Shown here piece after piece: positions 3,322 to 31,509 of a stretch of 64,000 nucleotides of DNA. The stretch is from an uncultured Enterobacterales bacterium (GTDB taxonomy: Bacteria; Myxococcota_A; UBA796; CAJQPC01). The stretch lies in contig CAZFLE010000015.1 of the NCBI GenBank assembly GCA_964519895.1, positions 2,073 through 66,072 of the forward strand, given 5' to 3'. Made by a program: the position numbers and the translations under genes. Every line of letters starts with the position of its first letter. Within the stretch, counting starts at the first letter, position 1. The notes below the pieces were generated by a model, which saw nothing but the letters and a program-made list of their open reading frames with translations, was not told the origin of the DNA and did no database searches.

Positions 3322-3864
3322 ATGGCCCTGGGCGGCCGGGTGCGGGGCAGCCTGCTCAAGGACTGGGGGGTGCACGTGGAGCGCCGCTGGGGCCGAGGTG
3401 CCCCCGAGGCGCTGGTCGAGGCACTGGGCTTCGATCTGGCCATTCGCCCGGCCCAGGGCGCCTGGTTCCCGGTCTGGGTCCAGCTTCGCCTGACGGAGCT
3501 CATCATCGAGCGGCACCTGGGCGGAGACCGGGCGGCGTTGGCCCCCTTGATCTGGGAGGACGCCGCCCTGAGCGCCGGTCCGCTGGCCACCGCGGCGCTG
3601 CGCCTCGCCGGCCCCGTGCGCATCCTCAAGCGCGCCCCGGGCAGCTTCTCCGGGCTCTACGACCAGGTCCAGGCGACGACCGAGCTCGACGACCAGCGCA
3701 TCGCCGTGCGCTTCACCGGCCCGGACCACGTGGACCAGCCCACCTGGAAGCTGCTCCAGGCCACGTCGCTCACGGGCCTGGTCCAGATGGCTGGACTGAG
3801 CGACTGGTCCCTGGCGGCGAGCTCGCCCTCTCCCGGCGCCTTCGACCTGACGCTGAGCCTGTGA
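3322..3864 (+). CDS. Hypothetical protein, possibly TIGR02265/DUF2378 (Myxococcus paralogous family)
   Basis: This is the in-frame tail of track ORF 1963..3864, with the first plausible ATG at 3322. The size (180 aa) and sequence style resemble DUF2378. The assignment is from memory only. Confidence 0.4.
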   Translation: MALGGRVRGSLLKDWGVHVERRWGRGAPEALVEALGFDLAIRPAQGAWFPVWVQLRLTELIIERHLGGDRAALAPLIWEDAALSAGPLATAALRLAGPVRILKRAPGSFSGLYDQVQATTELDDQRIAVRFTGPDHVDQPTWKLLQATSLTGLVQMAGLSDWSLAASSPSPGAFDLTLSL

Positions 3865-4307: not shown

Positions 4308-6629
4308 TCAGTAGTGCCGCTGGAGCACGTACCAGCCGAACGCCCTGAGCATGACCTTGGAGAGGCTGTCGTCGACCAGCGGATCGAGCTGGCGCCAGGC
4401 GTCTTCCACCAGGCCTTCGGCCTGTTCCACGCAGTCGTCGATGGCTCCGATCTCTTCCAGGCGCGCGATGACGTCGTTCACGACGGCCTGGTCCTGGGGA
4501 CAGGCACAGACCGTGTCGGCCAGCCATGCCCGATCGTCGGGGGACAGGACCCGCATCGCCTTGACCACGGGCAGGGTGATCTTGCCCTGGCGGATGTCCT
4601 CGCCGCGCTCCTTGAGGTTGCCCTTGAAGCCCCGTAGGTTCAACACGTCGTCGATGATCTGGAAGGCCAGGCCCAGGGACTCGAAGTAGCGTCCGACGCC
4701 GTCGATCTGTTCCTCGCTGCCCTTGCCGGCGATGGCGCCCATGCGCGCGAGGGCCGCGGCAGGCGCTGCGGTCTTGAGGCGGTGGATCGCCAGGACCCGC
4801 TGCTCCAGGAAGTCGATGCGACCGGTCTCCACGGCGCCGGGCACGGCGTCCATGGGCCCCAACAGGTCCAGGGCCTGGCCGGCGTGACCAGCACGGAGCG
4901 CCTCGAAGTAGAGCTCGTAGACACGCACGGTCTCGGCGCTGGAGAGGTCCGGGTTCTGCAGCAGCTGCTGGCCGATGAAGTACCCGGCTGTCCCCGAGTT
5001 GATGGCCAGGGCCTCGCCGTAGACCAGGTGACAGGCCGGTCCGCCGCGACGCCAGTCGGACTTGTCCTGCACGTCGTCGACGATCAGTGAGCCCACGTGC
5101 ATGAGCTCGGGCATCGCCAGCCACTTCACGTAGTCCCGGCTGTCGCCCCCCACGATGTCGCAGCAAGCCAGCGCCGCATAGCTGCGCCAGGCCTTGCCCC
5201 CCCGGTCGGTGATCTCGCGGAGGGGCTTCAGGTAGCCCTCGACCAGCTGGTCGTGGTCCACGCCCTCCATGAAGTGATCTCGGTGCTCCCCGGACACCAG
5301 GTCCCGCAGCGCGTTGTAGCTGGGGCGCTCGATCGGCAGGACCTTGCGGATGGAGCGCCGGACCTCGCGGGAGACCGACTTGAAGAACTTGTCCAGGGTG
5401 TCGGTCGTGAAGTACCCGCTGCGCTCCACATAGGCCTGGCCTGTGAGGCGGCGCTTGCCCCGGGTCCCCTGGACCAGACATCGCCCTTCCCAGAACGCCG
5501 GCTTGGAGATCAGCGTCACGAATTCCTGGTCTGCGAAGCACGCCTCGATCCGCAGCTCCAGGTCCGCCGCGGGCACGCTGAGCGTCCAGGCCAGCGGATA
5601 GCGGTTGAAGGTCCGGGCGCTGGTCCAGCTGTTCGGATCCGGGGTGAGCTCGAGCTCCGGGAAGCGGGTGACCGTGCCGTCCGCATCGATCAGCACGGCA
5701 CAGGCGTCGATCGGGGCCTGGCCAGCCAGGTCCTCCATGGTGTAGGCCGTGAGCTGGGAGCCGTCTTTCAGCTGGGCCGCGAGCCAGTTCCAGGCCATGT
5801 CGTCGTTGGCCACGGCCGCAGGGGGCTCGCCGGCCACCGGCGGGGCGGGATCCTGTCCCATCGCATCGGCGTCCAGGATGGAGTGGGCCCCGAACTCGTG
5901 GTCGTACCAGGCCTTTCCACCCCGGACCCGCTTGCGACGGCCGTCGAGCCACACCTGGCCGCTCACGTCACAGCGGGGCAGGAAGTAGTAGAACATGTCC
6001 TCGCCGGCCCGGCCCTTGACCACGCCGTCGGTCCCGTGGCGCACCGCCGTGCAGCGCGGGGTCAGCGTCAGGTCGACCGCGGTGCCTTCGGGTCCGTCCT
6101 TGAGCTCCAGCCGGTAGCGCCCGTCGTCGAGCTTCCAGAACCGGTTGCCCCCGAAGTCCAGGTCCAGACGGCCCTTGGAGACCAGCACCGGTGCGGCGAA
6201 GAACCGGTCCGGCTGGGGCACCTGGCCGCGCTCCAGGACCTCCTTCATCGCCTGCTGGATGCGGGGGTCCCGAGAGCCCTGACCGCGCTTGATCTTCTCC
6301 AGCCCGTGCTTGGGTGCGCTGGTGTCCACCCGGCTGTCGAACAGGTAGCGCGACCGCGCGGTGTCGCTGACGGCCCAGGTCAGGCTGTGGGCATGGATCG
6401 GGGCCTTGGTGTCCGGGTGCTCCCCGCTGAGGATGCGGAAGAACGACGCGAACACGCCCACCGTTCGACCCCGGCCGAGGTCCAGGTGGCCGTTGAGGTA
6501 CCACCACTCGGTTGTGGAGGAGGCATGGGGCAGATCCTGCACCGCCAGGTCGATGGGACCTGGGCCGGGCCAGTCGACGGGTGCGTCCACCAGACGGATC
6601 GCCGTCGGCCCGAAGGCGTTCTCTCCCAC
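4308..6629 (-). CDS. Fusion protein: N-terminal CrtC/AttH-like lipocalin (carotenoid hydratase-like) domain plus C-terminal polyprenyl diphosphate synthase
   Basis: 773 aa. The N-terminal half has the TEWWYLNGHL motif and beta-rich architecture typical of AttH/CrtC. The C-terminal half has prenyl synthase Asp-rich motifs LIVDDVQDKSDWRRG and FQIIDDVLN. Confidence 0.75.
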   Translation of the reverse strand: MGENAFGPTAIRLVDAPVDWPGPGPIDLAVQDLPHASSTTEWWYLNGHLDLGRGRTVGVFASFFRILSGEHPDTKAPIHAHSLTWAVSDTARSRYLFDSRVDTSAPKHGLEKIKRGQGSRDPRIQQAMKEVLERGQVPQPDRFFAAPVLVSKGRLDLDFGGNRFWKLDDGRYRLELKDGPEGTAVDLTLTPRCTAVRHGTDGVVKGRAGEDMFYYFLPRCDVSGQVWLDGRRKRVRGGKAWYDHEFGAHSILDADAMGQDPAPPVAGEPPAAVANDDMAWNWLAAQLKDGSQLTAYTMEDLAGQAPIDACAVLIDADGTVTRFPELELTPDPNSWTSARTFNRYPLAWTLSVPAADLELRIEACFADQEFVTLISKPAFWEGRCLVQGTRGKRRLTGQAYVERSGYFTTDTLDKFFKSVSREVRRSIRKVLPIERPSYNALRDLVSGEHRDHFMEGVDHDQLVEGYLKPLREITDRGGKAWRSYAALACCDIVGGDSRDYVKWLAMPELMHVGSLIVDDVQDKSDWRRGGPACHLVYGEALAINSGTAGYFIGQQLLQNPDLSSAETVRVYELYFEALRAGHAGQALDLLGPMDAVPGAVETGRIDFLEQRVLAIHRLKTAAPAAALARMGAIAGKGSEEQIDGVGRYFESLGLAFQIIDDVLNLRGFKGNLKERGEDIRQGKITLPVVKAMRVLSPDDRAWLADTVCACPQDQAVVNDVIARLEEIGAIDDCVEQAEGLVEDAWRQLDPLVDDSLSKVMLRAFGWYVLQRHY

Positions 6630-6765
6630 TGCTTCTCCACGGGTGCCGCGGTTTACCTACCACCCGGTCGGGAGCGGGTAAGGGCCCGCCATCAGTCTTG
6701 ACGCCTTCCAGACTGGGCGTTGACAGCCCGAACCCGGGTCCGTGGCCCCGAGTGGGCCACTGGAT

Positions 6766-7122
6766 TCAGTCGTCGGCGTCGGTCGATCCGTCCGTGAGGC
6801 GCTCCAGCACCTGGGCCCTGAGGGCCTCGCGCTTGGCGTCCGTGGTGTTCGAGCCGGCGTCGCGCCAGGCCATGAGGTAGTGCCTGTTGTTCTGGACCGT
6901 GTGCAGGATGAGCAGCCCGGCCAGCATCAGGTTCACGATGCGCAGGACCCCGGTGAACCCGGGAATACCCACGGTCACCAGCACGCAGGCCACCGCGAAA
7001 TTGGCCAGCTGGATGGTCCAGAACAGGGCCTTGCGCCGGTACCATCGCTCCCCCACGTGCAGAGCCCGGTTGGCGATCATCAGGCCCACGGTGCCGAACA
7101 GCAGCCAGGTGTCCAGGTCCAT
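6766..7122 (-). CDS. Small integral membrane protein (118 aa), hypothetical
   Basis: This is the tail of track ORF 6766..7710. Its ATG at 7122 overlaps the panC stop (ATGA). It has three hydrophobic segments. Confidence 0.5.
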   Translation of the reverse strand: MDLDTWLLFGTVGLMIANRALHVGERWYRRKALFWTIQLANFAVACVLVTVGIPGFTGVLRIVNLMLAGLLILHTVQNNRHYLMAWRDAGSNTTDAKREALRAQVLERLTDGSTDADD

Positions 7123-7952
7123 CAGGGCACGAGGGCCCGGTTGTCGATGAGCCGGGTCTGGCCGTAGAAGGCGGCGACCAGGGCCCTGGCCGGACCGGTC
7201 ACGGTCTGCACCGGGGCCAGACTGTCGGCGTCTCGGACCTCGAGGTAGTCGAGGCGGTCGGCCCGGATCTGATCTCGACCCAGGGCCAACAGCTGGGGCA
7301 CGTCGCGGGTGCCGCTGGCCACGGCGTCGGCCATCGCCGTGAGCGCCCGGTTCAGGCTGAGCCCCCGGGCCCGCTGGTCCGGGGTCAGGTAGGCGTTGCG
7401 CGAGGAGAGGGCCAGACCATCGGGGTCCCGGATGAGGGGAGCCCCCACCACCTCGACAGCGAGGGCCAGATCGCAGGTCATGCGCCGGACCACCGCGAGC
7501 TGCTGGTAGTCCTTTTCGCCGAAGACCGCGACGTGGGGCTGGACCAGCCCGAAGAGCCGCGCGACCACCGTGGTCACCCCGTCGAAGTGACCGGGCCGGC
7601 GACCACCGCACAGGCCTTCGCTCACCCCGCTCACCGAGACCCCGGTCGAGAAGTCCCGGGGGTAGAAGCGCTCGGGCACGAACAGCAGGTCGACCCCGTG
7701 ATCCCGGCACTTGGCCGCATCCCCCGCCAGGTCTCGCGGGTAGGTGTCCAGGTCCTCGCTCGGGCCGAACTGCAACGGGTTCACGAAGATGCTGACCACG
7801 AGACGGTCGCAGTCCCCCCGCGCGCGGTCCATCAGGCTGGTGTGCCCCGCGTGCAGGAAGCCCATGGTGGGCACGAAGCCGATGCGCAGCCCGGCCTGGC
7901 GCCAGGCGCGGGTCTGCGTGATCAATGCATCGGGGGATGCGACGGACTCCAT
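7122..7952 (-). CDS. panC: Pantoate--beta-alanine ligase
   Basis: Carries GFVPTMGFLHAGHTSL, FVNPLQFGPSEDL and GEKDYQQ motifs. The start was trimmed to the Met 4 nt downstream of the panB stop. Confidence 0.9.
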   Translation of the reverse strand: MESVASPDALITQTRAWRQAGLRIGFVPTMGFLHAGHTSLMDRARGDCDRLVVSIFVNPLQFGPSEDLDTYPRDLAGDAAKCRDHGVDLLFVPERFYPRDFSTGVSVSGVSEGLCGGRRPGHFDGVTTVVARLFGLVQPHVAVFGEKDYQQLAVVRRMTCDLALAVEVVGAPLIRDPDGLALSSRNAYLTPDQRARGLSLNRALTAMADAVASGTRDVPQLLALGRDQIRADRLDYLEVRDADSLAPVQTVTGPARALVAAFYGQTRLIDNRALVP

Positions 7953-7956
7953 CGCT

Positions 7957-8826
7957 TCAGTAGAGCTTGGCGAGCTGCGGGCCAGGCCGGGCCTTGCGCT
8001 TCCAGAAGCCGTGCTCACGGGCGGGGAAGCTGCCGGCCTTGACCTCGGCCACGTAGCGGGTCACCGCGTCGACCATCGGCTGCTCCAGCTCGGCGAAGCG
8101 CTTGACGAAGCGGGGCTTGAAGCTGGTGTCGAAGCCCAGGAGATCGTTGCACACCAGGACCTGGCCGTCGCAGTGCGGCCCGGCGCCGATGCCGATGGAC
8201 GGGATGTGCAGCAGCGCCGTCAGCTCGGCTGCCAGCTCGCCGGGCACCATCTCGAACACCACGCTGAAGGCGCCGGCGTCCTGGACCGCCAGGCAGTCCC
8301 GCCGGAGCTGGTCAGCACCCGCGTCGCCGCGGCCCTGGACACGCCAGCCCCCCAGCGCGTGCACGGACTGCGGGGTCAGCCCCACGTGAGCCACCACCGG
8401 GATGCCGGCCTCGACGATGCGCGCGATGGCCGGGGCCGAGCGCTCGCCGCCCTCGAGCTTCACGCTCTGGGCACTGCCCTTCTGGACCAGGTACCCGGCC
8501 GACGTGAGCGCCTGTTCCGGGGAGACCTGGTAGGACATGAACGGCATGTCGACCGTCAGGTGGGCCCTCTGCAGACCCCGGGCGACGCAGCGCCCGTGGT
8601 AGGCCATGTCGTCCAGGCTCACCGACAAGGTGTCCTGCTGGCCCTGGATGACCATGCCCAGCGAGTCGCCCACCAGGACCATGTCTACGCCGGCTTGGTC
8701 GACCAGGCGGGCCATGGAGTAGTCATAGGCCGTGACCATGGCGATCTTCTCGGGTCCATCGGACCCCTTACTCTCGAGGTTGTCGGCCTTCATGCGGAGA
8801 AGGTCCAACGCGGTCTTGCGGGGCAT
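7957..8826 (-). CDS. panB: 3-methyl-2-oxobutanoate hydroxymethyltransferase
   Basis: The C-terminal 289 aa of the 804-aa track ORF carry VTAYDY, LVGDSLGMV, VKLEGG, HVGLTPQS and IGIGAG motifs. The ATG is at 8826. Confidence 0.9.
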   Translation of the reverse strand: MPRKTALDLLRMKADNLESKGSDGPEKIAMVTAYDYSMARLVDQAGVDMVLVGDSLGMVIQGQQDTLSVSLDDMAYHGRCVARGLQRAHLTVDMPFMSYQVSPEQALTSAGYLVQKGSAQSVKLEGGERSAPAIARIVEAGIPVVAHVGLTPQSVHALGGWRVQGRGDAGADQLRRDCLAVQDAGAFSVVFEMVPGELAAELTALLHIPSIGIGAGPHCDGQVLVCNDLLGFDTSFKPRFVKRFAELEQPMVDAVTRYVAEVKAGSFPAREHGFWKRKARPGPQLAKLY

Positions 8827-15880: not shown

Positions 15881-15955
15881 GGGCGATTAACTCAGTGGGA
15901 GAGTGCTACCTTCACACGGTAGAAGTCACTGGTTCAAATCCAGTATCGCCCACCA
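15881..15955 (+). tRNA. tRNA-Val (anticodon CAC), CCA encoded
   Basis: A full cloverleaf was folded by hand. Acceptor stem gggcgat/atcgccc. D stem actc/gagt. Anticodon stem ctacc/ggtag with loop ttCACac. T stem actgg/ccagt with loop ttcaaat. Discriminator a, then CCA. Confidence 0.9.
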
Positions 15956-17426
15956 TTTTCGACACCTCTGGGGCTCCGGCCCCGAGGATGTCGAAGACAA
16001 CTGAAGTTTCGGCGGTTCCAAACGACTCGCCGTCGTGGGTGAGCCCGGTCGGGAACACCAGCCGCTGAAGGTGGATGCGGGCCTTGGGATGCAGGTCCGT
16101 CCACAGCGCGGCCGGCTTCGACAGCAGGCGCTCGGCGAACCCGAGCAGGGCGTCCACGTCGAGCTGGTCGTCCTGGGCCTGGTGAAGCTCGATGCGGACC
16201 GCTGCGATGTCGGCGTCCAGCTCGGCCTGCTTCGCCCGGCAGGCCTCCTCGCTGATGACGCGGTCGAGGTACGCATCCACAACCTGCCCTCGGCGTCGCT
16301 CCAGGTCCTGCAGCCGTTTGTGGAGGGCGGCCTCGGCCGCACCGGCGTCCTGGCGACGAGTCCGCCACACGTCGAGGATGACCTCGCGGAACAGCCGCAC
16401 GTACTCGACCCTCGGTGACGCCCGGCACAGCAGCTCCACGAAGGCCTCCTCCATCCGCTCCTTGGGCAGGGACACGCAGCCACTCCGGCGGCACCTGTAG
16501 TAGCCGAAGCGGCCGTTGCGTCCGCGGGAGAAGCTCCCAGTGACCGGCAGATCGTGGTGTGCGCAGCGCACGAAGCGTCGCAGTGGAAAGTCCGGGTGGT
16601 CCAGGAGGTGCGGCGGGGACTTCGGCCCCTTGCGCGTCAGGACGTGCTGAACGGCATCCCAGAGCGCCTCGTCCACGAGCGGATCGAAGTCGCCCTCGAC
16701 GTCGATGGCCCACCTGGGCTCGACGATGCGGCCCTTGTAGATCGGGTTGCCCAGCATGTTGCGAAAAGTCTGGGCGCTCACAGCGTTGCCTCGCCGGGTC
16801 GTCAGGCCGAGGGCGTTCACGTGCCTGCGGACCGCGGCTTGCGAGCGGTGGCCGGTGGCGTACATCTCGAAAGCCAGCCGAACCAGCGGGGCGCGATCGG
16901 AATCAGCAACCAAGCTGGCTCCCGCCCCCGTCCGGGGCTTGGTATACCCGACGGGCGGCTGGTGGGGCCATCGGCCGCGCGCGACCGCGGCCTTCATGCC
17001 GTTGAGCGCCCGCTCCGAGCGCACGTCGTTGTCGAACTGGGCGACCAGGGCCAACATGCCTTCGAGGAACCGGCCTGGTGCGTCATCCTCCAGGTGCTCG
17101 GTCGCCGACCGTAGTTCGATGCCGAGGGTACGCAGTCCGCCGCGCAGCATGTGGTAGTCGCCGACGTTCCGGGAGAACCGGTCCACCTTGTACACGACCA
17201 CGTAGTCGACCTCGGCCTTCCGGTCGGCGCACACTCGCAGCAGCCGGTGGAGCTGGGTCCGGTCCGCCGTCTTGGCGGACTCGCCGCGCTCCTCGAAGAC
17301 CTCCATGACCTGGAGACCGTTGCGCCGGCAGTAGTCGCGGCAGGCGTCGAGCTGGGTCGCCAGGCTCAGGTTCGAGACCTGCTCCTTGGTAGAGACACGA
17401 CAGTAGACGAGGGCGTTGAGGGGCAC
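15912..17426 (-). CDS. Large serine recombinase (integrase)
   Basis: 504 aa. It has a resolvase catalytic N-terminus ALVYCRVSTKEQ, VYKVDRFSRN, a recombinase domain, the Cys-rich zinc ribbon CAHH..YYRCRRSGC, and a coiled coil. The last 14 codons are antisense to tRNA-Val positions 32-75. Confidence 0.9.
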   Translation of the reverse strand: MPLNALVYCRVSTKEQVSNLSLATQLDACRDYCRRNGLQVMEVFEERGESAKTADRTQLHRLLRVCADRKAEVDYVVVYKVDRFSRNVGDYHMLRGGLRTLGIELRSATEHLEDDAPGRFLEGMLALVAQFDNDVRSERALNGMKAAVARGRWPHQPPVGYTKPRTGAGASLVADSDRAPLVRLAFEMYATGHRSQAAVRRHVNALGLTTRRGNAVSAQTFRNMLGNPIYKGRIVEPRWAIDVEGDFDPLVDEALWDAVQHVLTRKGPKSPPHLLDHPDFPLRRFVRCAHHDLPVTGSFSRGRNGRFGYYRCRRSGCVSLPKERMEEAFVELLCRASPRVEYVRLFREVILDVWRTRRQDAGAAEAALHKRLQDLERRRGQVVDAYLDRVISEEACRAKQAELDADIAAVRIELHQAQDDQLDVDALLGFAERLLSKPAALWTDLHPKARIHLQRLVFPTGLTHDGESFGTAETSVVFDILGAGAPEVSKMVGDTGFEPVTSTV

Positions 17427-17656
17427 GGCGGTCTACGGTCCATTGCCGTCGAAGCCACGGCCGCGTCCACGAGGACACGGGCGACGGCGTACATGGCCGC
17501 ACGCAGCTCGGCGAGCTGTCGGGGGGTCAGCTCGGCGGAGCCACGCAGCTCGCTGAATCGTTCGAGGGAGAGCACGGCGGGGGCCTGCTCGCGTCGGGTG
17601 GACGCGGGTTGACCGACCGCTCGGGCTCATCCCGTGGCGCTCAGGGGGCTGCATGG

Positions 17657-18625: not shown

Positions 18626-19489
18626 TCAGGGCCCGGCCCGTTGGGGCTCCGGCATCCGCGCGAGCGCAGCCAGCCCGAGAGACGCCAGGGTCACACACGA
18701 CAGGGCAGTCAGCCAGGCGTTCCCCAGGACCCAGGCGGCCAACGTCGCCCCGGTCTCGCGCCAGACGATGTAGCCAGCCATGACCAGAACGAAGACGCCG
18801 AACCCGCGGCGAAGCGCCCCCTCGGGGACCCTGGACGCGAGCTTCGCACCAGCAAGCGCACCGACGACGGCGCCGGCGGTGACTGCGGCGGCAAGCTCGA
18901 AGTCGACCGACACATCAGCCGCGTGACCTGCAAACGCCGCGAACGACTTCAGCGCGATCACGAGCAGCGAGGTGCCGATCGCCCTGTGCATGTCCATTCC
19001 GCCAAGGAGAACCAGTGCCGGGACCACCAGGAAGCCGCCACCGGCACCGACCAGCCCGGTGGCGGCTCCCACGATGAGACCCTCGACGATAACCAGCGTC
19101 ACCGGCAGCGACCCGCCCTCCGACCGCCGCGCCGGCGTGCCGCGCCCGCGGAACATCCCGACAGCGGTCGCCACCATCATGGCGGCGAAGAGCAAGAGCA
19201 GCGTGGACCCGCTGAACCAGCCCGCCGCCCGGCCGCCGAGGTAGGCGCCAGCCATCGCCGTGGCGCCGAACAGCAACCCCGTGCGCCACGCGACGTTGCC
19301 CGAGCGTGCATGGGGCACGAGCGCGAAGGCTGAGGTCGTCCCAACGATCAGGAGGGACGTGGCGATGGCCTCGCGGGGCTCCAAGCCCACGGCGTAGGTC
19401 AGGATGGGGACCGCCAGGATCGACCCGCCACCGCCGAGGAGCCCGAGGGCGAGGCCGATGAGAACGGAGAGTGCAACAGCGAGCGCCAC
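18626..19489 (-). CDS. TauE/SafE (TSUP, DUF81) sulfite exporter family permease, copy 1
   Basis: 287 aa, polytopic, with repeated GGGGS/GAGGGF motifs. The GTG start is preceded by GGGAGG. Confidence 0.85.
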   Translation of the reverse strand: MALAVALSVLIGLALGLLGGGGSILAVPILTYAVGLEPREAIATSLLIVGTTSAFALVPHARSGNVAWRTGLLFGATAMAGAYLGGRAAGWFSGSTLLLLFAAMMVATAVGMFRGRGTPARRSEGGSLPVTLVIVEGLIVGAATGLVGAGGGFLVVPALVLLGGMDMHRAIGTSLLVIALKSFAAFAGHAADVSVDFELAAAVTAGAVVGALAGAKLASRVPEGALRRGFGVFVLVMAGYIVWRETGATLAAWVLGNAWLTALSCVTLASLGLAALARMPEPQRAGP

Positions 19490-19491
19490 GG

Positions 19492-19950
19492 CTACCTCCC
19501 CGCTTCAGCGGCGGCGGTGCGAGCGACGCGAGTCGCGGCGAAGCCGTCCAGGAAGTGAACCAGCAACATCCCACCGAGCATGGCTGCGACAAACGTGATC
19601 GCCTTGGGTCCGCCCGGCAGCGCTGAGACCACCGCAGGGCCGGGACAGTAGCCAGCCAGGCCCCACCCCACTCCGAAGAGGGCGGCGCCACCAACCAGCC
19701 GGCCATCGATGTCCCGCCTCGTCGGCCGGCTGAAGGACGTCGAGCACAGCGGCGCTGTTCGATGGTCGATGACCCGACGCAGAGGGGTGTGCACGAGGAG
19801 TGCCCCGACCATCACGACGCCGAGGCTGGGGTCCCACGGGCCAAGCAGGTCCAGGAAACCGACGACCACGTCCGGACGGGTCATCCCCGACACGACGAGG
19901 CCGGCGCCGAAGACCAGCCCGGAGAGAGCCGCTGTGATGAGACCCTTCAC
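19492..19950 (-). CDS. YeeE/YedE (sulfur transport, DUF395) half-protein B, copy 1
   Basis: Its GTG start overlaps the upstream stop (GTGA). It carries the [11 protein letters not shown] motif. Confidence 0.75.
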   Translation of the reverse strand: MKGLITAALSGLVFGAGLVVSGMTRPDVVVGFLDLLGPWDPSLGVVMVGALLVHTPLRRVIDHRTAPLCSTSFSRPTRRDIDGRLVGGAALFGVGWGLAGYCPGPAVVSALPGGPKAITFVAAMLGGMLLVHFLDGFAATRVARTAAAEAGR

Positions 19951-20378
19951 AGCGCACCTCCGAGCACATGGTTGACCGCGAAGGCACTGGCGGCGCCGGT
20001 GCCCATGAACGTCAGGACGCTGGTGAGCGACCGGGGTGACATCCGAGCCAAGCCACACACGCCGTGCCCGCTCGTGCAGCCGTTTCCGAGCCGGGTGCCA
20101 GCCCCGACGAGCAGCCCCGCGACAATGAGAGCGCCGGTGGACCGGGAGAGCGGATTCACGAATGCGTCCGGGACGACCGGGACGAGCAACAGCCCCGCGA
20201 GCACCAACCCGACAACGAAGGCCGCGCGCCAGTGGCGCTCTTGGGTCCGACGCTGAAGCAGCCCGCCGACGATGCCGCTGATCCCGGCGATGCGACCGTT
20301 GAACAGGAGGTACGAGGATGCCGCCAGCCCGATGAGCATCCCGCCGACGAGGGGAGGGAGGAGTGACTGCAGGGTCAT
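19947..20378 (-). CDS. YeeE/YedE (sulfur transport, DUF395) half-protein A, copy 1
   Basis: Its ATG at 20378 overlaps the pdo stop (ATGA). It carries the [12 protein letters not shown] motif. Confidence 0.75.
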   Translation of the reverse strand: MTLQSLLPPLVGGMLIGLAASSYLLFNGRIAGISGIVGGLLQRRTQERHWRAAFVVGLVLAGLLLVPVVPDAFVNPLSRSTGALIVAGLLVGAGTRLGNGCTSGHGVCGLARMSPRSLTSVLTFMGTGAASAFAVNHVLGGAL

Positions 20379-21433
20379 CGTGCTTCTCCTTCGACGGAGG
20401 CCCGGACGACAGGCAGGCCCCGATCGGTCCAGGCCTGCATCCCGCCTGAGACGGAAGCGATCTGGGAGAAGCCACTCGTGCGAAGCCTCTGAGCCGCCTC
20501 GGCCGACCGCCGGCCCGAGTGGCAGATCAACGCGATCCGGTCGTCGGTCGACCACTCGCTCGCGGCGTCAGCGAGCTTGCCGAGGGGGACGCGCTGGGCG
20601 TCAGGCGCGCACCCGAGCGGCCCACAGCACTCCGCGGGCTCGCGGATGTCGATCAGCCGGACGCGGGCCGCGTTCGCGGCGATCCACACGGGGTCGACCT
20701 CCGGGATGCCGGCACCAGTGAGGACGATGGGAAGGCCCGTCGCAGTCGCCCCACACGCCCGGTTGGCCGGCAGGGCGACGTCGATGCGCTTGGGGTACGG
20801 AAGGCCCAGGCCATTCATCAGCGCGATGAAGTCGCCCTCGGAGCGACCATGTCCGAGCCTGGCGTTGTGCCGCTTCTCGTCGCCGACGGTGCTGACGGTG
20901 CGGCCCTTGTAGTCGTGGCCGGGGTAGACGCGGGTGGCGTCCGGCAGCGTGAAGATCTGCTCGTGGACGCGGCGGTAGAGCGTCCTCGCGTCGCCCTCCT
21001 GGAAGTCGGTCCGGCCGCACCCGCCGATCAGCAAGGCATCGCCGGTGAACACCATCGTCTCGTCGAGCGTGACGAAGCTCACGCAGCCCGCGGTGTGGCC
21101 CGGCGTGGCCCGCACCTGCAGGCCGTAGCCGCCGAAGCGGACCACCTCGCCGTGGCCGACGGCCTGGTCGGAGCAGCTGACCCCGGCGGCCTCGCTAACC
21201 ACGGCGAGGCAGCCCAGCCGGTCCCGTAAGGCCGAGGCGCCGGTCACGTGGTCGGCGTGGACGTGGGTGTCGAGAGTGCACACCAGTCGGACCCCAAGGC
21301 TGTCGACGAGCGCAGCGTCCCGGTCGACCTGTTCCAGCACGGGATCGATGATGACTGCCTCACGGCTCTCGGGGTCGGCGAGGAGGTAGGTGAAGGTGGA
21401 CGTGTCCGGGTCGAACAACTGTCGGAAGATCAT
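20375..21433 (-). CDS. Persulfide dioxygenase (MBL fold, ETHE1-like) fused to a rhodanese domain, copy 1
   Basis: The start was trimmed to MIFRQLF to match copy 2. It has the THVHADHV metal motif and a C-terminal rhodanese domain with the active-site loop CHSGRRS. Confidence 0.85.
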   Translation of the reverse strand: MIFRQLFDPDTSTFTYLLADPESREAVIIDPVLEQVDRDAALVDSLGVRLVCTLDTHVHADHVTGASALRDRLGCLAVVSEAAGVSCSDQAVGHGEVVRFGGYGLQVRATPGHTAGCVSFVTLDETMVFTGDALLIGGCGRTDFQEGDARTLYRRVHEQIFTLPDATRVYPGHDYKGRTVSTVGDEKRHNARLGHGRSEGDFIALMNGLGLPYPKRIDVALPANRACGATATGLPIVLTGAGIPEVDPVWIAANAARVRLIDIREPAECCGPLGCAPDAQRVPLGKLADAASEWSTDDRIALICHSGRRSAEAAQRLRTSGFSQIASVSGGMQAWTDRGLPVVRASVEGEAR

Positions 21434-21468
21434 GGCAGAGCCCTCGGAGTGAGACAGCTTGGACAAGA

Positions 21469-21483
21469 GCAACGGGCGTGCCA
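21469..21483 (-). promoter_or_regulatory. Sigma-54 promoter (-24/-12) of sulfur module 1
   Basis: The minus strand reads TGGCACgcccgTTGC, an exact match to the TGGCAC-N5-TTGC consensus. It lies about 35 nt upstream of the pdo ATG. Confidence 0.75.
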
Positions 21484-21554
21484 ACCCCCCGCGGCACGTA
21501 TTTCCGCAGACTTAGGTGGTTGCCTCCAGGCCTCGTATTTCATAGTGTCTCGAC

Positions 21555-22505
21555 ATGACGAAACAACATCGTCCAAAGACTCGGACGTTCCACGGCATGG
21601 TGACCGCCTCGCGGCAGATGGAGCGGCTGTTCGAGCTGGTAGGACGCGTCGCCGAGTCTGGCTCCTCCGTGCTGATCCGGGGGGAGACCGGCACGGGCAA
21701 AGAGCTGGTGGCGCGCGCCATCCACTCCTTGAGCCCTCGGCGGGACGCGACGTTCCGAGCAGTGAACTGCGCAACGCTCACGCCCGAGCTGCTTGCGTCG
21801 GAGCTGTTCGGGCACCGCCGGGGCGCCTTCACCGGAGCTGTACAGGACCGGCCCGGTCTCTTCGCTCTGGCCAATGGCGGCACGCTGTTCTTGGACGAGA
21901 TCGCCGAGATCCCGCTGGACATCCAGGGGCGCCTCCTCCGGGTCCTTCAGGAGCGCTCCTTCGTGCCTGTCGGCGGGACCGATCCAGTCCAGGTCGACGT
22001 GCGCGTCCTCGCGGCCACGCACCGTGCGCTGAGACGCGAGGTCGAGGCCGGGCGCTTCCGGGCCGACCTGATGTACCGGATCCGCGTCGTGCCGCTCTTC
22101 CTCCCGCGTCTGGTCGAGCGCTCCGGCGACATCGAAGCGCTGGCGTGGCACTTCATCGACGAGTTCAACGTCCGCGGGTTCCGCCAGGTCGAGCGCCTCG
22201 CCGCCGAGACCCTCGACCTGATGCACGCTCACGCCTGGCCGGGCAACGTCCGCGAGCTGCGCAACGTCATCGAGCACGCCTTCGTGATGGGAACCGGACC
22301 CGACCTGTTGCCGGGTGACCTGACGCCCGAGCTTCGCGGAGAGCCCCCGCCTGGAGACCCCGCCGACCGGACGGAAGAGAGCGCCGAGCGGGACCGCATC
22401 CTCACCGCGCTGAACCGCGCCCGAGGCCACAAGGGCAAGGCCGCCGAGTACCTCGGGTGGAGCCGGTCGACCCTGTGGCGAAAGATGCGCGAGCAACGAC
22501 TGTAG
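21555..22505 (+). CDS. Sigma-54-dependent transcriptional activator lacking an N-terminal sensory domain, copy 1
   Basis: 316 aa. The AAA+ core starts about 12 aa from the N-terminus ([27 protein letters not shown]). It has a C-terminal Fis-type HTH ([21 protein letters not shown]). Confidence 0.9.
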
Positions 22506-27467: not shown

Positions 27468-28334
27468 TCACCTGGGCGCCGGGTGCTCCCGTTCCGGCGC
27501 CCGGGCGAGCGCACCCAGTCCGAGGGCCGCCAGGACCACGCCCCACAGACCGGCGATCCACCGGTTGTCGACCACCCAGGCGGCCGCAGACGCCCCGGTC
27601 TCCCGCCAGACGATGAAGCCGGCCATCGCCAGGACGAAGACCCCGAACCCACGACGGAGCGACGCTCCCGGGACCCTGGACGCGAGCTGGGCACCCGCCA
27701 GCGCGCCCAGCACGGCCCCGGCGGTGACCGCACCGGCCAGCGCCAGGTCGACGGGCACATCGACCGCGTGGCCCGCATAGGCCGCAAAGGACTTCAGGGC
27801 GATCACGAGCAACGAGGTTCCGATGGCCCGGTGCATGTCCATGCCCCCGAGCAGGACCAGCGCCGGCACCACCAGGAAGCCCCCGCCGGCGCCCACCAGC
27901 CCTGTCGCCGCTCCGACCCCCAAGCCCTCGGCGACCACCAAGGCCACTGGCGGGGACCCGGCCCAGGGCCCCGGGGCCGCCGAGCTGCGGCCTCGGAACA
28001 TGCCCAGGGCGGTGGCGACCATCATGGCGGCGAACAGCAGGAGCAGCGTCGATCCGCTGAACCACCCGGCCGCCCGGCCGCCGAGGTAGCCCCCGGCCAT
28101 CGCCGTGGCCCCGAACAAGAGCCCCGTGCGCCAGGCCACGTTGCCCGCCCGCGCATGGGGCCAGAGCGCAAAGGCCGACGTGGTCCCGACGATCAGCAAG
28201 GACGTGGCGATGGCCTCGCGCGGCTCCAGACCCACGGCATAGGTCAGGATCGGCACCGCGAGGATCGACCCACCACCGCCCATCAGGCCAAGGGCGAGGC
28301 CGATGAGCACGGAGAGCGCCACGGCGATCCACAC
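27468..28334 (-). CDS. TauE/SafE (TSUP) sulfite exporter family permease, copy 2
   Basis: Colinear with copy 1. A GTG at 28334 (or 28322) was chosen because the track ORF start at 28379 lies inside the inserted repeat element. Confidence 0.8.
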   Translation of the reverse strand: MWIAVALSVLIGLALGLMGGGGSILAVPILTYAVGLEPREAIATSLLIVGTTSAFALWPHARAGNVAWRTGLLFGATAMAGGYLGGRAAGWFSGSTLLLLFAAMMVATALGMFRGRSSAAPGPWAGSPPVALVVAEGLGVGAATGLVGAGGGFLVVPALVLLGGMDMHRAIGTSLLVIALKSFAAYAGHAVDVPVDLALAGAVTAGAVLGALAGAQLASRVPGASLRRGFGVFVLAMAGFIVWRETGASAAAWVVDNRWIAGLWGVVLAALGLGALARAPEREHPAPR

Positions 28335-28336
28335 GG

Positions 28337-28500
28337 CTATTCCCCTGTCGCAGAAGTTCGCGAGGCACTCGCGAAGCAATCGTCGCGCCTGGTGGATTCC
28401 AGACGCGGCCGGTGTGGCCGAGTCACATCAACGCGGCTGGGAGCCGCCAGGCGCGACGAGGGCGAGCGAGTGTCCGTGAACTTCTGCGACATGGGACTAG
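28337..28500. mobile_element. MITE-like element, copy 2, inserted in the yeeE-B/tauE junction of sulfur module 2
   Basis: 164 bp, gap-free colinear with copy 1. The arms are ctattcccctgtcgcagaagttcgcg and cgtgaacttctgcgacatgggactag (23 of 26 pair). It is flanked by CTA(T)/CTA(G). The paralogous junction in module 1 (19487-19492) has no insert. Confidence 0.7.
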
Positions 28501-28955
28501 TGCCGCCGCTCAGGAGAGGCGACGCGGGCCAGGGGTCTCCCGGCGAGGGCGTCCACGCGGTGCACCAGCACCATGCCGGCCAACATGGCGGCCAGGAAGG
28601 TGAGCGCCTTGGGGCCGCCCGGCAGGGCAGAGACCACCGCAGGGCCCGGACAGTAGCCAGCCAGACCCCAGCCCACGCCAAAGAGGGCGGCGCCCACGAC
28701 CAGGCGGGCGTCGAGGTCCCGCCGGGTCGGCATCCTGAAGGCGTCGGAGCACAGGGGCGACCGCCGGCGTTCGATCAACCAGCGCAGCGGGGCGTGCACG
28801 AGCAGGGCCCCGACCATCACGACCCCCAGGCTCGGGTCCCAGGTGCCGAGGACGTCCAAGAAGCCGACGACCACGTCGGGGCGGGTCATCCCCGACACCA
28901 CGAGGCCGATGCCAAAGACCAGGCCCGAGGCGGCTGCGGTGATCAGTCCCCTCAC
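28497..28955 (-). CDS. YeeE/YedE half-protein B, copy 2
   Basis: GTGA start overlap as in copy 1, with the [11 protein letters not shown] motif. Its TAG stop lies in the terminal CTAG of the inserted element. Confidence 0.75.
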
Positions 28956-29383
28956 AGCCCACCTCCCAGCCACTGGCTGACCGCGGTGGCGCTGGCCGCG
29001 CCGGTGGCCATGAAGGTGAGCACGCTGACCAGCGAGCGCGGGGAGCTCCGAGCCAGCCCACACACGCCGTGCCCGCTGGTGCAGCCGTTCCCGAGCCGAG
29101 TGCCAGCGCCCACCAGCATCCCCGCGACGACGAGAGCGGCGGTGGACCGAGAGAGCGGATTCACGAAGGCCTCGGGAGCGGCAGGGGCGAGCAACAGTCC
29201 CGCCCCACTCAGCCCGATCACGAACGCGCCCTGGAGATGGCGGTCCCCAGTGCGACGCTGGAGCAGCCCGCCGACGATGCCGCTGATCCCAGCGACGCGA
29301 CCGTTGAACAACAGGTAGCCGGACGCCGCCAAGCCGATGAGCATCCCGCCCACGAGCGGCGGGAGGAGCGCTTGAATGGTCAT
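28952..29383 (-). CDS. YeeE/YedE half-protein A, copy 2
   Basis: ATGA overlap with the pdo stop, with the [12 protein letters not shown] motif. Confidence 0.75.
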
Positions 29384-30438
29384 CGTGTGGCTCCGTCGCT
29401 GGACACCCGCACCACTGGGAGGCCAAGGGCGGTCCAGGCGGCCATGCCGCCTTCCACGGACGCGACCTGGGCCAAGCCACGGGCCCGGAGCCCCAAGGCG
29501 GCGTCGCCCGAACGCCGGCCCGAGTGGCAGACCAGGGCGACCCGAGCGTCGCTCGACCACGCGCCCGCGGCCTCGCCGAGCTCGCCAAGGGGGACCCGCA
29601 AGGCGTTGGGAATGCACCCCAGCGGTCCGCAGCACTCGACCGGCTCGCGAATGTCGACCACCTGAAGCCGCGCCGGGTTCGCCGCCACCCACTGGGGGTC
29701 GACCTCGGGGATGCCGCCGCGGCTCATGACGATGGGAAGGCCCGTCGCAGGCACCCCGCACGCCCGGTTCGCGGGCAGCGCGACGTCGATGCGCCTGGGG
29801 TAGGGAAGCCCTAGCCCGTTCATCAAGCGGATGAAGTCAGCCTCGGGGCGTCCCTGCCCGAGCCGGGCATTGTGTTGCTTCTCGACGCCCACGGTGCTGA
29901 CCGTGCGGCCCCTGTAGTCGTGGCCGGGGTACACCCGGGTGGCGTCCGGAAGCGTGAAGATCTGCTCGTGCACGGAGCGGTAGAGGGTGCTCGCGTCGCC
30001 CTCCTGGAAGTCCGTGCGTCCGCAGCCGCCGATCAGCAGGGCGTCCCCGGTGAAGACCATGGCCTGGTCCAGGGTGACGAAGCTCACGCAGCCCGCGGTG
30101 TGACCCGGCGTGGCCCGGACCTGCAGCCCAAATCGACCGAACCGCACGACCTCGCCGTGCCCGACGGTCTGGTCGGAGCAGCTCACCCCTGCGGCCTCGC
30201 TGACCACCGCCTCGCAGCCGAGGCGGTCACGGAAAGCCGTGGCGCCGGTCACGTGATCGGCGTGCACGTGGGTGTCGAGCGTGCACACCAGGCGCAGGCC
30301 CAGCTCCTCGACCAGGGCCGCATCCCGCTCGACCTGCTCCAGCACGGGATCGATGATGACCGCCTGGGCACTGACGGGATCGGCCAGGAGGTAGGTGTAG
30401 GTGGAGGTGTCCGGGTCGAACAGCTGTCGGAAGATCAT
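29380..30438 (-). CDS. Persulfide dioxygenase-rhodanese fusion, copy 2
   Basis: 352 aa starting [18 protein letters not shown], with THVHADHV and a rhodanese CHSGRRS loop. Confidence 0.85.
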
Positions 30439-30472
30439 CGGGGTGCCTGGGAGGGAGTTGGCTTCACTGTGA

Positions 30473-30487
30473 GCAACGGCCGTGCCA
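30473..30487 (-). promoter_or_regulatory. Sigma-54 promoter (-24/-12) of sulfur module 2
   Basis: The minus strand reads TGGCACggccgTTGC, an exact consensus spacing, in the same position relative to pdo as in module 1. Confidence 0.75.
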
Positions 30488-30558
30488 ACACCTTCCGCCT
30501 CGCGTTTCCAGCCACTTGGAGACCTGCCGAACCAAGAGTTGATTCATAATGTCTCAAC

Positions 30559-31509
30559 ATGAAGCAATATGATCGTCCAAGCACGCGCACATTCCACGGC
30601 ATGGTGACCGCGTCACCCCAGATGGCCCATCTCTTCGCGCTGGTGGCGCGCGTCTCCGAGCCTGATTCGTCTGTGTTGATCCGCGGAGAGACCGGCACCG
30701 GCAAGGAGCTCGTTGCCCGGGCCATTCATGCCCTGAGCCCCCGCCGGAACGCGGCCTTTCGGGCGGTCAACTGCGCCACCCTCACCCCCGAGCTGCTCGC
30801 GTCGGAGCTGTTCGGGCACCGTCGCGGCGCCTTCACCGGGGCCATCCGGGACAAGCCTGGTCTGTTCCAGCTCGCCGACGGCGGCACGCTCTTCCTGGAC
30901 GAGATCGCCGAGATCCCCTTGGACATCCAGGGGCGACTGCTGCGGGTCCTGCAGGAGCGCTCCTTCGTGCCGGTGGGCGGGACCGAGCCGGTGCAGGTCG
31001 ACGTGCGCGTGCTGGCGGCGACGCACCGAGCCCTCCGCCGCGAAGTCCAAGCCGGGCGCTTCCGGGCAGACCTGATGTACCGGGTCCGTGTGGTGCCGCT
31101 GTTTCTCCCGCGCCTGGTGGAGCGCACGGGCGACATCGAGGCCCTGGCCTGGCACTTCATCGACGACTTCAACCGGCGGGGCTTCCGGCAGGTCGACCAT
31201 CTGGCGCCAGAGACCCTGGACCTGCTCCACGCCCACCCGTGGCCGGGCAACGTGCGCGAGCTCCGGAACGTCATCGAGCACGCCTTCGTGATGGGCACGG
31301 GCCCCGACCTGGTGCCCGACGACCTGACGCCCGAGCTTCGCGGGGAGCCGCCGCGGGCAGACCCCGGCGCGGCGACCGCGCTCCAGGCCGAGCGGGACCG
31401 GATCCTGTCGGCGCTGAACCGCGCGCGAGGGCACAAGGGCAAGGCCGCGGAGATCCTGGGGTGCAGCCGATCGACGCTGTGGCGGAAGATGCGGGAGCAG
31501 CGGCTCTGA
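30559..31509 (+). CDS. Sigma-54-dependent transcriptional activator lacking a sensory domain, copy 2
   Basis: 316 aa, colinear with copy 1 (about 45 mismatches by hand alignment). It has GAFTGA, Walker A/B and a Fis HTH. Confidence 0.9.
   Translation: MKQYDRPSTRTFHGMVTASPQMAHLFALVARVSEPDSSVLIRGETGTGKELVARAIHALSPRRNAAFRAVNCATLTPELLASELFGHRRGAFTGAIRDKPGLFQLADGGTLFLDEIAEIPLDIQGRLLRVLQERSFVPVGGTEPVQVDVRVLAATHRALRREVQAGRFRADLMYRVRVVPLFLPRLVERTGDIEALAWHFIDDFNRRGFRQVDHLAPETLDLLHAHPWPGNVRELRNVIEHAFVMGTGPDLVPDDLTPELRGEPPRADPGAATALQAERDRILSALNRARGHKGKAAEILGCSRSTLWRKMREQRL

Follow-up and report, generated by a model that had tools for sequence, protein, structure and literature searches.

Can a single bacterial polypeptide both build a prenyl chain and modify it? 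This question is raised by a gene on contig CAZFLE010000015.1 (GenBank assembly GCA_964519895.1, labelled as an uncultured Enterobacterales bacterium), of which a stretch of 64,000 nucleotides, here called the window, was analysed. The gene, situated at positions 4308-6629 of the window on the minus strand, encodes an AttH/CrtC double beta-barrel (residues ~20-406) that runs, with no linker in between, into a trans-polyprenyl diphosphate synthase (residues ~410-773). Judging from the sequence comparisons given below, the protein may be a bifunctional, rigidly fused synthase-hydratase making a hydroxylated prenyl lipid, a reading to which we give a probability of roughly one half.

The open reading frame (ORF) is uninterrupted over 773 codons, from a GTG at 6629 to a TGA at 4308-4310, and specifies one polypeptide with two enzyme-type halves, as had been observed in an earlier note on this DNA, which omitted the strand (minus). 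Since the window has a G+C content of 69% and ORFs of 609 and 534 amino acids (aa) overlap the fusion ORF in other frames, the length of the latter is weak evidence by itself. Its codon positions show a coding-type composition (G+C of third positions, GC3, 0.91; of second positions, GC2, 0.46), and public data hold an identical 773-aa protein (P0001) together with at least 120 full-length three-domain homologues, so that the ORF is taken as a real gene. All three Pfam matches of the protein exceed their gathering thresholds, namely PF07143 (CrtC; residues 40-247, 77.4 bits vs. a cutoff of 22.5), PF17186 (Lipocalin_9; residues 274-406, 94 vs. 26.2 bits), and PF00348 (polyprenyl_synt; residues 467-722, 166.8 vs. 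27 bits). The assignment of the two halves to the AttH/CrtC and trans-prenyl synthase families, which the earlier note had made from the letters, is thereby confirmed, the kinship of the N-terminal half resting on two profiles; the motifs it had read are likewise present (TEWWYLNGHL at residues 40-49, positions 6483-6512; DDVQD at residues 518-522; DDVLN at residues 660-664). The gene and its putative start signal are as follows:

4308-6629, minus strand: complete coding sequence of the fusion, 773 aa plus TGA stop (GC3, identical P0001, full-length homologues).
6635-6638, minus strand: GGAG, a Shine-Dalgarno-like sequence 5 nt upstream of the GTG, read from the sequence and presumed to function as such.

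Concerning the N-terminal half, the following elements were distinguished, conservation here and below referring to 80 non-redundant Myxococcota-type members of the family, and RgCrtC being the CrtC of Rubrivivax:

5889-6512, minus strand: first beta-barrel (PF07143, residues 40-247), with TEWWY at 40-44 and FYYF at 213-216 (Pfam, 2ich, Foldseek).
6210-6332, minus strand: helical insert, residues ~100-140, DPR..A..E.LERG.VP.PD (alignment; predicted helices 105-114 and 122-133).
5889-5909, minus strand: WYDHEFG motif, in which D243 corresponds to D268 and W241 to Y266 of RgCrtC (alignment; D243 in 79 of 79 residues).
5805-5879, minus strand: loop of variable length and low model confidence, residues 251-275, between the catalytic Asp and WxW (alignment; predicted local distance difference test score, pLDDT, below 50).
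5784-5792, minus strand: WNW motif, W280/W282 corresponding to W283/W285 of RgCrtC (invariant in 8 aligned representatives and in 80/80 members).
5412-5810, minus strand: second beta-barrel (PF17186, residues 274-406; Pfam, PDB search, conservation among the 80 members).

The only match of this half in a sequence search of the PDB is the putative AttH NE1406 (2ich; E = 1e-17, residues 34-407), and the predicted structure is most similar, by Foldseek, to the same protein (E = 2e-20, TMt 0.84) and to kievitone hydratase (7a0t/7a0q; E = 2e-14, TMt 0.76-0.78). The sequence of the barrel is ~23% identical to CrtC of Roseobacter litoralis (taken from the crtC-crtD part of its photosynthesis plasmid) and 25-26% to AttH. 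The catalytic positions were compared in an alignment of eight sequences, comprising the N-terminal domain of the window protein, two family members, the Streptomyces and Tolypothrix forms, R. litoralis CrtC, and two stand-alone AttH. In this alignment GYFDANFG of R. litoralis CrtC stands against AWYDHEFG of the fusion and AWLDREW of AttH, which places D243 at the CrtC Asp, and WTW of CrtC stands against W280-N-W282; the RgCrtC numbering was carried over to R. litoralis CrtC by means of the identical 15-residue spacing from Asp to Trp. In Rubrivivax CrtC, D268, W283, and W285 are essential by mutagenesis, and protonation of the double bond followed by stabilisation of the carbocation has been proposed (PMC4717167, PMC12402844). 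Within the second barrel DQE (367-369), FWEG (379-382), and ERSG (402-405) are invariant, and the R383 that follows FWEG is found in 75/80 members. The helical insert at ~100-140 occurs in all fused proteins examined, whereas it is absent from stand-alone AttH and CrtC in the alignment. By these comparisons the barrel belongs to the AttH/CrtC superfamily and retains the core residues for catalysis.

The characterised enzymes of the AttH/CrtC family are CrtC, the fungal kievitone hydratase, which acts on a prenyl side chain, and the archaeal AttH-like Hgs, which makes hydroxylated glycerol dialkyl glycerol tetraether (hydroxy-GDGT) membrane lipids; all of them hydrate trisubstituted isoprene double bonds to tertiary alcohols (bioRxiv 10.1101/2025.10.20.683597). 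Substrates of CrtC include lycopene and neurosporene, but also the C20 compound geranylgeraniol (PMC3145076), and RgCrtC accepts more than 20 terpenes of C12-C20 (PMC12402844).

The C-terminal half comprises these elements:

4311-5207, minus strand: trans-polyprenyl diphosphate synthase core, residues 475-773 (PF00348, PDB matches, Foldseek, conservation).
Within 4311-5207, minus strand: core motifs GGKxWRS (477-483), H511, KT (619-620), GK.T (682-685), and a C-terminal RHY.
5064-5078, minus strand: first Asp-rich motif DDVQD, residues 518-522 (Asp residues in 80/80).
4638-4652, minus strand: second Asp-rich motif DDVLN, residues 660-664, within FQIIDDVLNLRGF (N664 in 80/80).

GGKxWRS, H511, DDVQD, RRG, KT (K619), FQ..DDVLN, and GK.T vary little or not at all; in the RRG that follows DDVQD (527-529), R527 and R528 are found in 80/80 members and G529 in 79. 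The PDB matches of this half are geranylgeranyl diphosphate (GGPP), octaprenyl, and decaprenyl synthases, both by sequence (best E = 1e-24) and by structure (Foldseek, TMt 0.75-0.90). The terminal Asn of DDVLN, which the earlier note had flagged as a departure from the usual Asp, turned out not to be unusual: the solved GGPP synthase of Thermus thermophilus (1wmw) carries FQIVDDVLNL, with a DDVLN identical to that in the FQIIDDVLN of the fusion (residues 656-664), and no clade of the fused family departs from this Asn, so that a defective or otherwise unusual synthase cannot be read from it. As far as can be judged from its motifs, the synthase half looks catalytically competent. It does not appear to be an orthologue of any named synthase, since the fusion protein falls far short of the cutoff of every NCBIfam equivalog model, its best score being that for the short-chain IdsA (141 bits vs. 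a cutoff of 468). The polyprenyl transferase that is a cargo of family 2 encapsulins (NF041169) was also considered and rejected (130 bits vs. 450), the likeness being one of the synthase fold in general. Small residues (G513, S514) precede DDVQD at positions -5 and -4, i.e., the classical bulky floor of C15/C20 type-I synthases is absent. Because of this missing floor, and because the best profile matches are C15-C20 synthases, a product of C20 or longer is our guess.

The two halves are connected by a segment that is itself conserved:

5208-5411, minus strand: junction, residues 407-474, four helices straight after the last barrel strand (model and 80-member alignment).

Mean pairwise identity is 50% in the junction (residues 406-474), 52% in the barrel domain, and 68% in the synthase, and insertions or deletions within residues 400-480 amount to at most 1 residue across the 80 members. 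In an AlphaFold2 model built on 33 members (mean pLDDT 87.7, predicted TM-score, pTM, 0.87), the final barrel strand (393-404) leads directly into helices 412-430, 438-445, 448-454, and 459-474 (pLDDT 82-92), residues 412-770 are wholly helical, and low confidence is confined to residues 1-14 and to the variable loop 251-275. As the pTM of 0.87 applies to the whole 773-residue chain, the model indicates a single rigid body, without a flexible linker, rather than two tethered domains. What the alignment and the modelling proposed in the earlier note provide is a junction free of gaps and a confident placement of both halves as one body, and not a tunnel between the active sites. A Foldseek search with the model returned no PDB chain that holds both halves.

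Concerning the frequency and taxonomic range of the fusion, a scan of one genome per species found relatives encoded in at least 357 species-level genomes, nearly all of them of uncultured Myxococcota, with more distant members in Legionella, Streptomyces, and Tolypothrix. The best 80 of these are all metagenome-assembled genomes (MAGs), mostly labelled Myxococcota (labels being Myxococcales, Polyangia, Nannocystaceae, Kofleriaceae, and Bradymonadia), and their proteins are 52-86% identical to the window protein. The loci L011, L012, L014, L017, L018, L023, L035, and L046 stem from MAGs titled uncultured Enterobacterales or Enterobacteriaceae or Klebsiella pneumoniae; on carriers of a Myxococcota-type gene, such labels are almost certainly wrong. 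When the N-terminal domain alone was searched against 1.84 billion representatives clustered at 50% identity, 2804 matches were obtained at E <= 1e-3 and 141 at E <= 1e-30, and most of the full-length top matches measure 720-870 aa, i.e., the size of the fused protein. Stand-alone versions were looked for among the three short top matches, of which P0133 and P0139 end before the synthase part and P0134 ends inside the first synthase motif, as would be expected for truncations at contig ends and not for true single-domain proteins.

Relatives outside the Myxococcota carry the same unit, in part with further domains. A tblastn search of plasmids with the N-terminal domain yielded genes annotated as 'polyprenyl synthetase family protein'. 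The homologue of Streptomyces canus NBC_01585 (747 aa) has the order CrtC-Lipocalin_9-polyprenyl_synt, and the cultured Legionella quateirensis possesses a fused relative of 738 aa (WP_058472502.1). In Tolypothrix sp. PCC 7601 a protein of 1509 aa combines a sulfotransferase, a GT1 glycosyltransferase (GT28_N/EryCIII_C/UDPGT), CrtC, Lipocalin_9, and polyprenyl_synt; it gives the impression of a complete pathway, within one protein, to a sulfated terpenoid glycoside. The gene lies on plasmid NZ_CP064882.1 (L009:9646-14175), and this five-domain form is rare (3 clusters among 5.8 billion proteins). A GT1 domain also precedes the AttH-synthase unit in P0199 (1078 aa) and P0240 (1029 aa). In the metagenomic P0177 (888 aa), a phosphoinositide-binding PX domain precedes a degenerate unit, which lacks the first Asp-rich motif, has SDVTC in place of the second and Glu in place of the barrel Asp, and has lost WxW; members of its cluster are named 'geranylgeranyl pyrophosphate synthase' by JGI, and its motif losses suggest that it is probably a pseudo-enzyme reused for binding. 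All other clades retain WYDHEFG, WxW, DQE..[FY]WEGR, DD[IV][QE]D.S..RRG, and DD[VA][LI]NLRGF. As the clades share these motifs as well as the helical insert that is missing from stand-alone AttH/CrtC, the comparison points to a single fusion event in a common ancestor. The earlier note had not recognised the architecture as a described one; indeed, no paper on the fusion was found in open-access full texts and bioRxiv (one in a subscription journal could be missed), but the fusion itself is common, and database entries name it 'polyprenyl synthetase family protein' or 'GGPP synthase/predicted secreted hydrolase'. What would be new is the barrel-type partner and the linker-free bacterial fusion, both domain families being already well known.

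From these data we infer both activities, how the two domains are related in their substrates, where hydration takes place, and what becomes of the product, as follows. The C-terminal domain would condense isopentenyl diphosphate (IPP) onto an allylic primer, yielding an all-trans prenyl diphosphate. The N-terminal double barrel would then take up the hydrophobic tail of this product, or of a lipid made from it; D243 would serve as proton donor, an aromatic cage of W42/W43, W241, W280, and W282 would stabilise the cation, and water would be added across a trisubstituted isoprene double bond (the omega-terminal bond being the most plausible site), with a tertiary alcohol as the product. In lineages with additional glycosyltransferase or sulfotransferase domains or with exporters, the hydroxylated lipid might be decorated and moved out of the cytoplasm. 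The strongest indirect argument is provided by these fused transferases, since their presence in relatives implies that the unit makes a hydroxyl acceptor. Hence, of the earlier suggestion that a hydrated or otherwise modified isoprenoid is made by channelled synthesis, the hydrated product is the best-supported reading (retained Asp and WxW, hydratase relatives, glycosyltransferase fusions), whereas the channelling is not shown. A more specific version, in which the omega end of the growing chain passes out through the floor of the synthase cavity and threads into the barrel, where D243 hydrates the terminal double bond at a set length, is speculative and, in this full form, rather unlikely; it would yield an omega-hydroxy (tertiary alcohol) prenyl diphosphate as committed precursor of undescribed bacterial isoprenoid lipids or glycolipids, widespread in Myxococcota and, among Legionella, Streptomyces, and cyanobacteria, modified by glycosylation or sulfation in certain lineages, with export in other ones.

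Several observations weigh against a synthase-hydratase. The places of H239 and W241 of CrtC, essential by mutagenesis, are taken by Y214 and F216 in the fusion, in agreement with AttH (the equivalence being established by spacing back from the catalytic Asp in R. litoralis CrtC, where MAFFT is unreliable), and the S. canus homologue carries Glu at the position of D243. Asp and WxW are also kept in stand-alone AttH without an assigned function, so that their conservation alone is no proof of a hydratase, and the chain length of the synthase product is not readable from sequence. Furthermore, the Myxococcota loci are without a nearby glycosyltransferase, exporter, or isoprenoid gene, and their recurrent neighbours are without a family match.

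Among the alternatives, the one with the most in its favour, although we consider it improbable on balance, regards the barrel as a non-catalytic, lipid-binding receiver of the product, which aids release, sets the chain length, or hands the lipid to a membrane protein or exporter. Long-chain prenyl synthases require detergents or carrier proteins to release their product, and such a role would also agree with a transport-linked one of the stand-alone AttH, whose genes are found directly behind those of an ABC (ATP-binding cassette) ATPase and an FtsX-type permease, as well as with the exporters adjoining the fused genes of S. canus, Tolypothrix, and Legionella. Moreover, the calycin/lipocalin-type fold has been proposed, on structural grounds, to serve in lipid metabolism (PMC2954199). 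A hydrophobic pocket would, however, not need the near-invariant D243 (79/79) and W280/W282 (80/80), nor the likewise conserved polar residues in the barrel interior (DQE, FWEG with its following Arg in 75/80, and ERSG); every characterised member of the family is an enzyme, and the glycosyltransferase-fused relatives again imply that a hydroxyl acceptor is made. Clearly less probable is that the barrel acts as a cyclase by Asp protonation, similar to class II cyclases but on a beta-barrel, and hence as a bacterial counterpart of the fungal prenyltransferase-cyclase chimeras. The mechanism of CrtC, with its acidic Asp and aromatic cage, has been compared with that of squalene-hopene cyclase (PMC4717167), cyclisation chemistry is known for an AttH-like fold from the fungal Diels-Alderase CghA (PMC8159843), and the C-terminal position of the synthase mirrors that in the chimeras, whose prenyltransferase domains are among the PDB matches (e.g., 8v0f). 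Yet terpene cyclisation is not known from any member of the AttH/CrtC family, all characterised ones quench the cation with water, and the glycosyltransferase fusions fit an alcohol product better, though a cyclic alcohol is possible.

The remaining doubts concern the synthase half and the fusion as such. That the C-terminal half does not elongate, being instead a terpene synthase of the isoprenyl diphosphate synthase (IDS) type or a regulatory pseudo-enzyme, so that the protein uses externally supplied isoprenoids, might be argued from the IDS-fold terpene synthases among the weaker PDB matches (6v0k, 7s0x series) and from P0177, whose loss of both Asp-rich motifs indicates that degeneration occurs in the family. 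This is nevertheless very unlikely, given that GGK..R, DDxxD, RRG, KT, FQ..DDxxN, and GK.T are intact in the window protein and in 80/80 Myxococcota members, and that the synthase is the most conserved part of the chain (68% mean identity). An origin of the fusion in an error of sequencing or assembly, or in a recent pseudo-fusion that joined two genes, can be neglected for practical purposes: the frameshift between the halves, which the earlier note had named as a refuting condition, is contradicted by the same single-chain layout in hundreds of genomes, uninterrupted on independent contigs and MAGs from different studies. Cultured Legionella, Streptomyces, and Tolypothrix show this layout in their finished genomes or plasmids, and the junction is conserved and indel-free; no point in support of an artefact was found. 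The synthase-hydratase thus remains the reading that we prefer.

In the window, the fusion gene is situated between a panC stretch (panC at 7122-8018 and a 109-aa ORF at 6796-7122) and a convergent ORF at 3322-3864, beyond which a homocitrate/isopropylmalate-synthase-like gene, a thiolase, and an isopropylmalate dehydrogenase follow; a deoxynucleoside kinase and a single-stranded DNA-binding protein are further neighbours. In agreement with the earlier note, which had seen no adjacent carotenoid or terpene genes, none of the window genes scanned with Pfam and NCBIfam (Pfam being applied to about 26 ORFs, some few of which were run against NCBIfam as well, and NCBIfam alone to 3 others; stretches called gene-free at ~22.5-27.4 and 35.2-40.6 kb excluded) belongs to a terpene or isoprenoid family, and a terpene or carotenoid cluster is therefore rejected as context. 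A second copy of a prenyl synthase or AttH was not found in the window by tblastn. In the locus L006 (JGI 3300009008), which encodes a relative with 78% identity, a mevalonate block (L006:16354-22307) lies 4-10 kb from the fusion gene and consists of HMG-CoA reductase, two GHMP kinases, diphosphomevalonate decarboxylase, and an FMN_dh-type gene, maybe IDI-2; such a block is absent from the 64-kb window.

When 84 related loci were clustered, gene order proved not to be conserved, and only two recurrent neighbours were found:

3322-3864, plus strand: conserved neighbour of ~180-205 aa, convergent with the fusion gene (tblastn; the true start may be near 3253).
L068:12251-14002, L052:12218-13990, and 13 other loci: membrane protein of ~600 aa (alignment A4).

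The ~205-aa neighbour is situated within 500 bp of the fusion gene, in all orientations, in 32 of the 61 loci with adequate flanks. It has no match in Pfam, in NCBIfam, or among PDB sequences; its AlphaFold2 model (pLDDT 82.5) gives weak but consistent matches to H-NOX proteins (TM 0.46-0.55, E ~4e-3 to 4e-2), and no obvious heme-binding YxSxR motif was seen, so the fold may tentatively be described, from the model, as an H-NOX/V4R-like one for binding small ligands. A functional link to the fusion gene is suggested by gene neighbourhood only. The second neighbour, a polytopic membrane protein, lies within 500 bp in 17 of the 61 loci, usually directly downstream, many of these being MAGs of Kofleriaceae and Polyangia. 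It possesses an invariant DD right after the first transmembrane segment as well as a DDARG motif, and could be a GT-C-like transferase; Pfam, NCBIfam, and a profile search of PDB sequences gave no match, and the gene is absent from the window.

Outside the Myxococcota, lipid-type exporters adjoin the fusion in three of the four loci examined. The S. canus gene adjoins ABC genes, the Tolypothrix gene is flanked by exporter genes (devB-like, devC, ABC ATPase), and in Legionella (L097:5284-12217, UGOW01000001.1) an RND (resistance-nodulation-division) membrane-fusion protein and an ACR_tran/MMPL-type pump are encoded directly upstream on the same strand. These neighbourhoods suggest that the product is destined for the envelope. 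The stand-alone AttH for which an ABC ATPase and FtsX permease precede the gene are those of Agrobacterium and Caballeronia. In Legionella, genes for a CDP-alcohol phosphatidyltransferase, an acyltransferase, and a CTP_transf_1 protein are found 5-8 kb downstream of the fusion gene.

Elsewhere in the window, the regions 18648-22501 and 27493-31505 constitute a segmental duplication (~80% nucleotide identity, the copies starting ~8.8 kb apart). The duplicated module encodes a TauE/SafE exporter, a metallo-beta-lactamase-rhodanese fusion, and a sigma-54 activator; the layout of the fusion, as far as architecture is concerned, we take to be that of the known persulfide dioxygenase-rhodanese fusions. 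Between the housekeeping block and this sulfur module lies a large serine recombinase (Resolvase and Recombinase domains; 15912-17432, minus strand), which may mark an integrated element.

If the synthase-hydratase reading is correct, the family would constitute a bacterial fusion of a synthase with a modifying enzyme of a new partner fold, rigid and linker-free, whereas such fusions have so far been fungal, with a helical cyclase on a tether. The family comprises hundreds of species-level genomes, most of them from uncultured Myxococcota of the kind often met with in metagenomes from freshwater, soil, and the sea; given this size, its strong conservation, and these hosts, the product could be an abundant, unrecognised hydroxylated isoprenoid lipid and possibly an environmental biomarker. 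Selective hydration of unactivated terpene double bonds is a sought-after reaction (PMC12402844), and a natural synthase-hydratase would offer a ready-made route from IPP to tertiary terpene alcohols. Owing to the cultured carriers Legionella quateirensis, Streptomyces canus NBC_01585, and Tolypothrix sp. PCC 7601, the hypothesis is directly testable.

Compared with known systems, the barrel half shares with CrtC (EC 4.2.1.131, PF07143) the two-barrel family, by Pfam as well as by fold, and the residues D268 (D243), the preceding Y266 (W241), and W283/W285 (W280/W282); CrtC hydrates the terminal isoprene double bond of acyclic isoprenoids, geranylgeraniol included, which is the reaction supposed here. 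Despite this similarity the window protein is not regarded as a CrtC orthologue: identity to bona fide CrtC is ~23%, H239/W241 are exchanged for Y/F, a helical insert and a variable loop are added, and CrtC is a stand-alone, membrane-associated protein, whereas the window protein is fused to a synthase and has no carotenoid genes nearby. AttH NE1406 (2ich) is the best match of the N-terminal half (E = 1e-17, TMt 0.84, 24-25% identity in Foldseek), with which it has the motifs TEWWY, YYY/YYF, W-x-D-[HR]-E-[WF], and WxW in common. AttH proteins, however, are stand-alone and of ~330-360 aa, the one from Agrobacterium with a signal-peptide-like N-terminus, whereas the window protein lacks a signal-type N-terminus, is fused to a synthase that uses cytoplasmic IPP, and carries the fusion-specific insert. 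Kievitone hydratase and Hgs belong to the same fold family and both hydrate a prenyl or isoprenoid double bond to a tertiary alcohol, Hgs acting on the tails of membrane isoprenoid lipids; the former is fungal, stand-alone, 15% identical, and specific to a prenylated isoflavonoid, the latter archaeal, stand-alone, and active on GDGT.

Concerning the synthase half, the all-alpha IDS fold, DDxxD, RRG, KT, and an identical DDVLN are shared with GGPP synthases (1wmw; archaeal IdsA), whereas the low IdsA score (141 vs. 468 bits), the lack of a floor at -5/-4 (G, S), the invariant C-terminal RHY, the DDxxNLRGF signature, and the N-terminal fusion set the family apart from them. The overall plan, with a C-terminal GGPP-type prenyltransferase and an N-terminal enzyme acting on its product, most recalls the fungal prenyltransferase-cyclase chimeras (PaFS, EvVS, PvCPS). 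Membership in this group is nevertheless rejected: in the chimeras the N-terminal partner is an alpha-helical class I or II cyclase on a long flexible linker, whereas in the present family it is a beta-barrel that passes through a conserved, helical, indel-free junction into the synthase, and the chimeras are known only from fungi, whereas the hosts of the fusion are bacteria.

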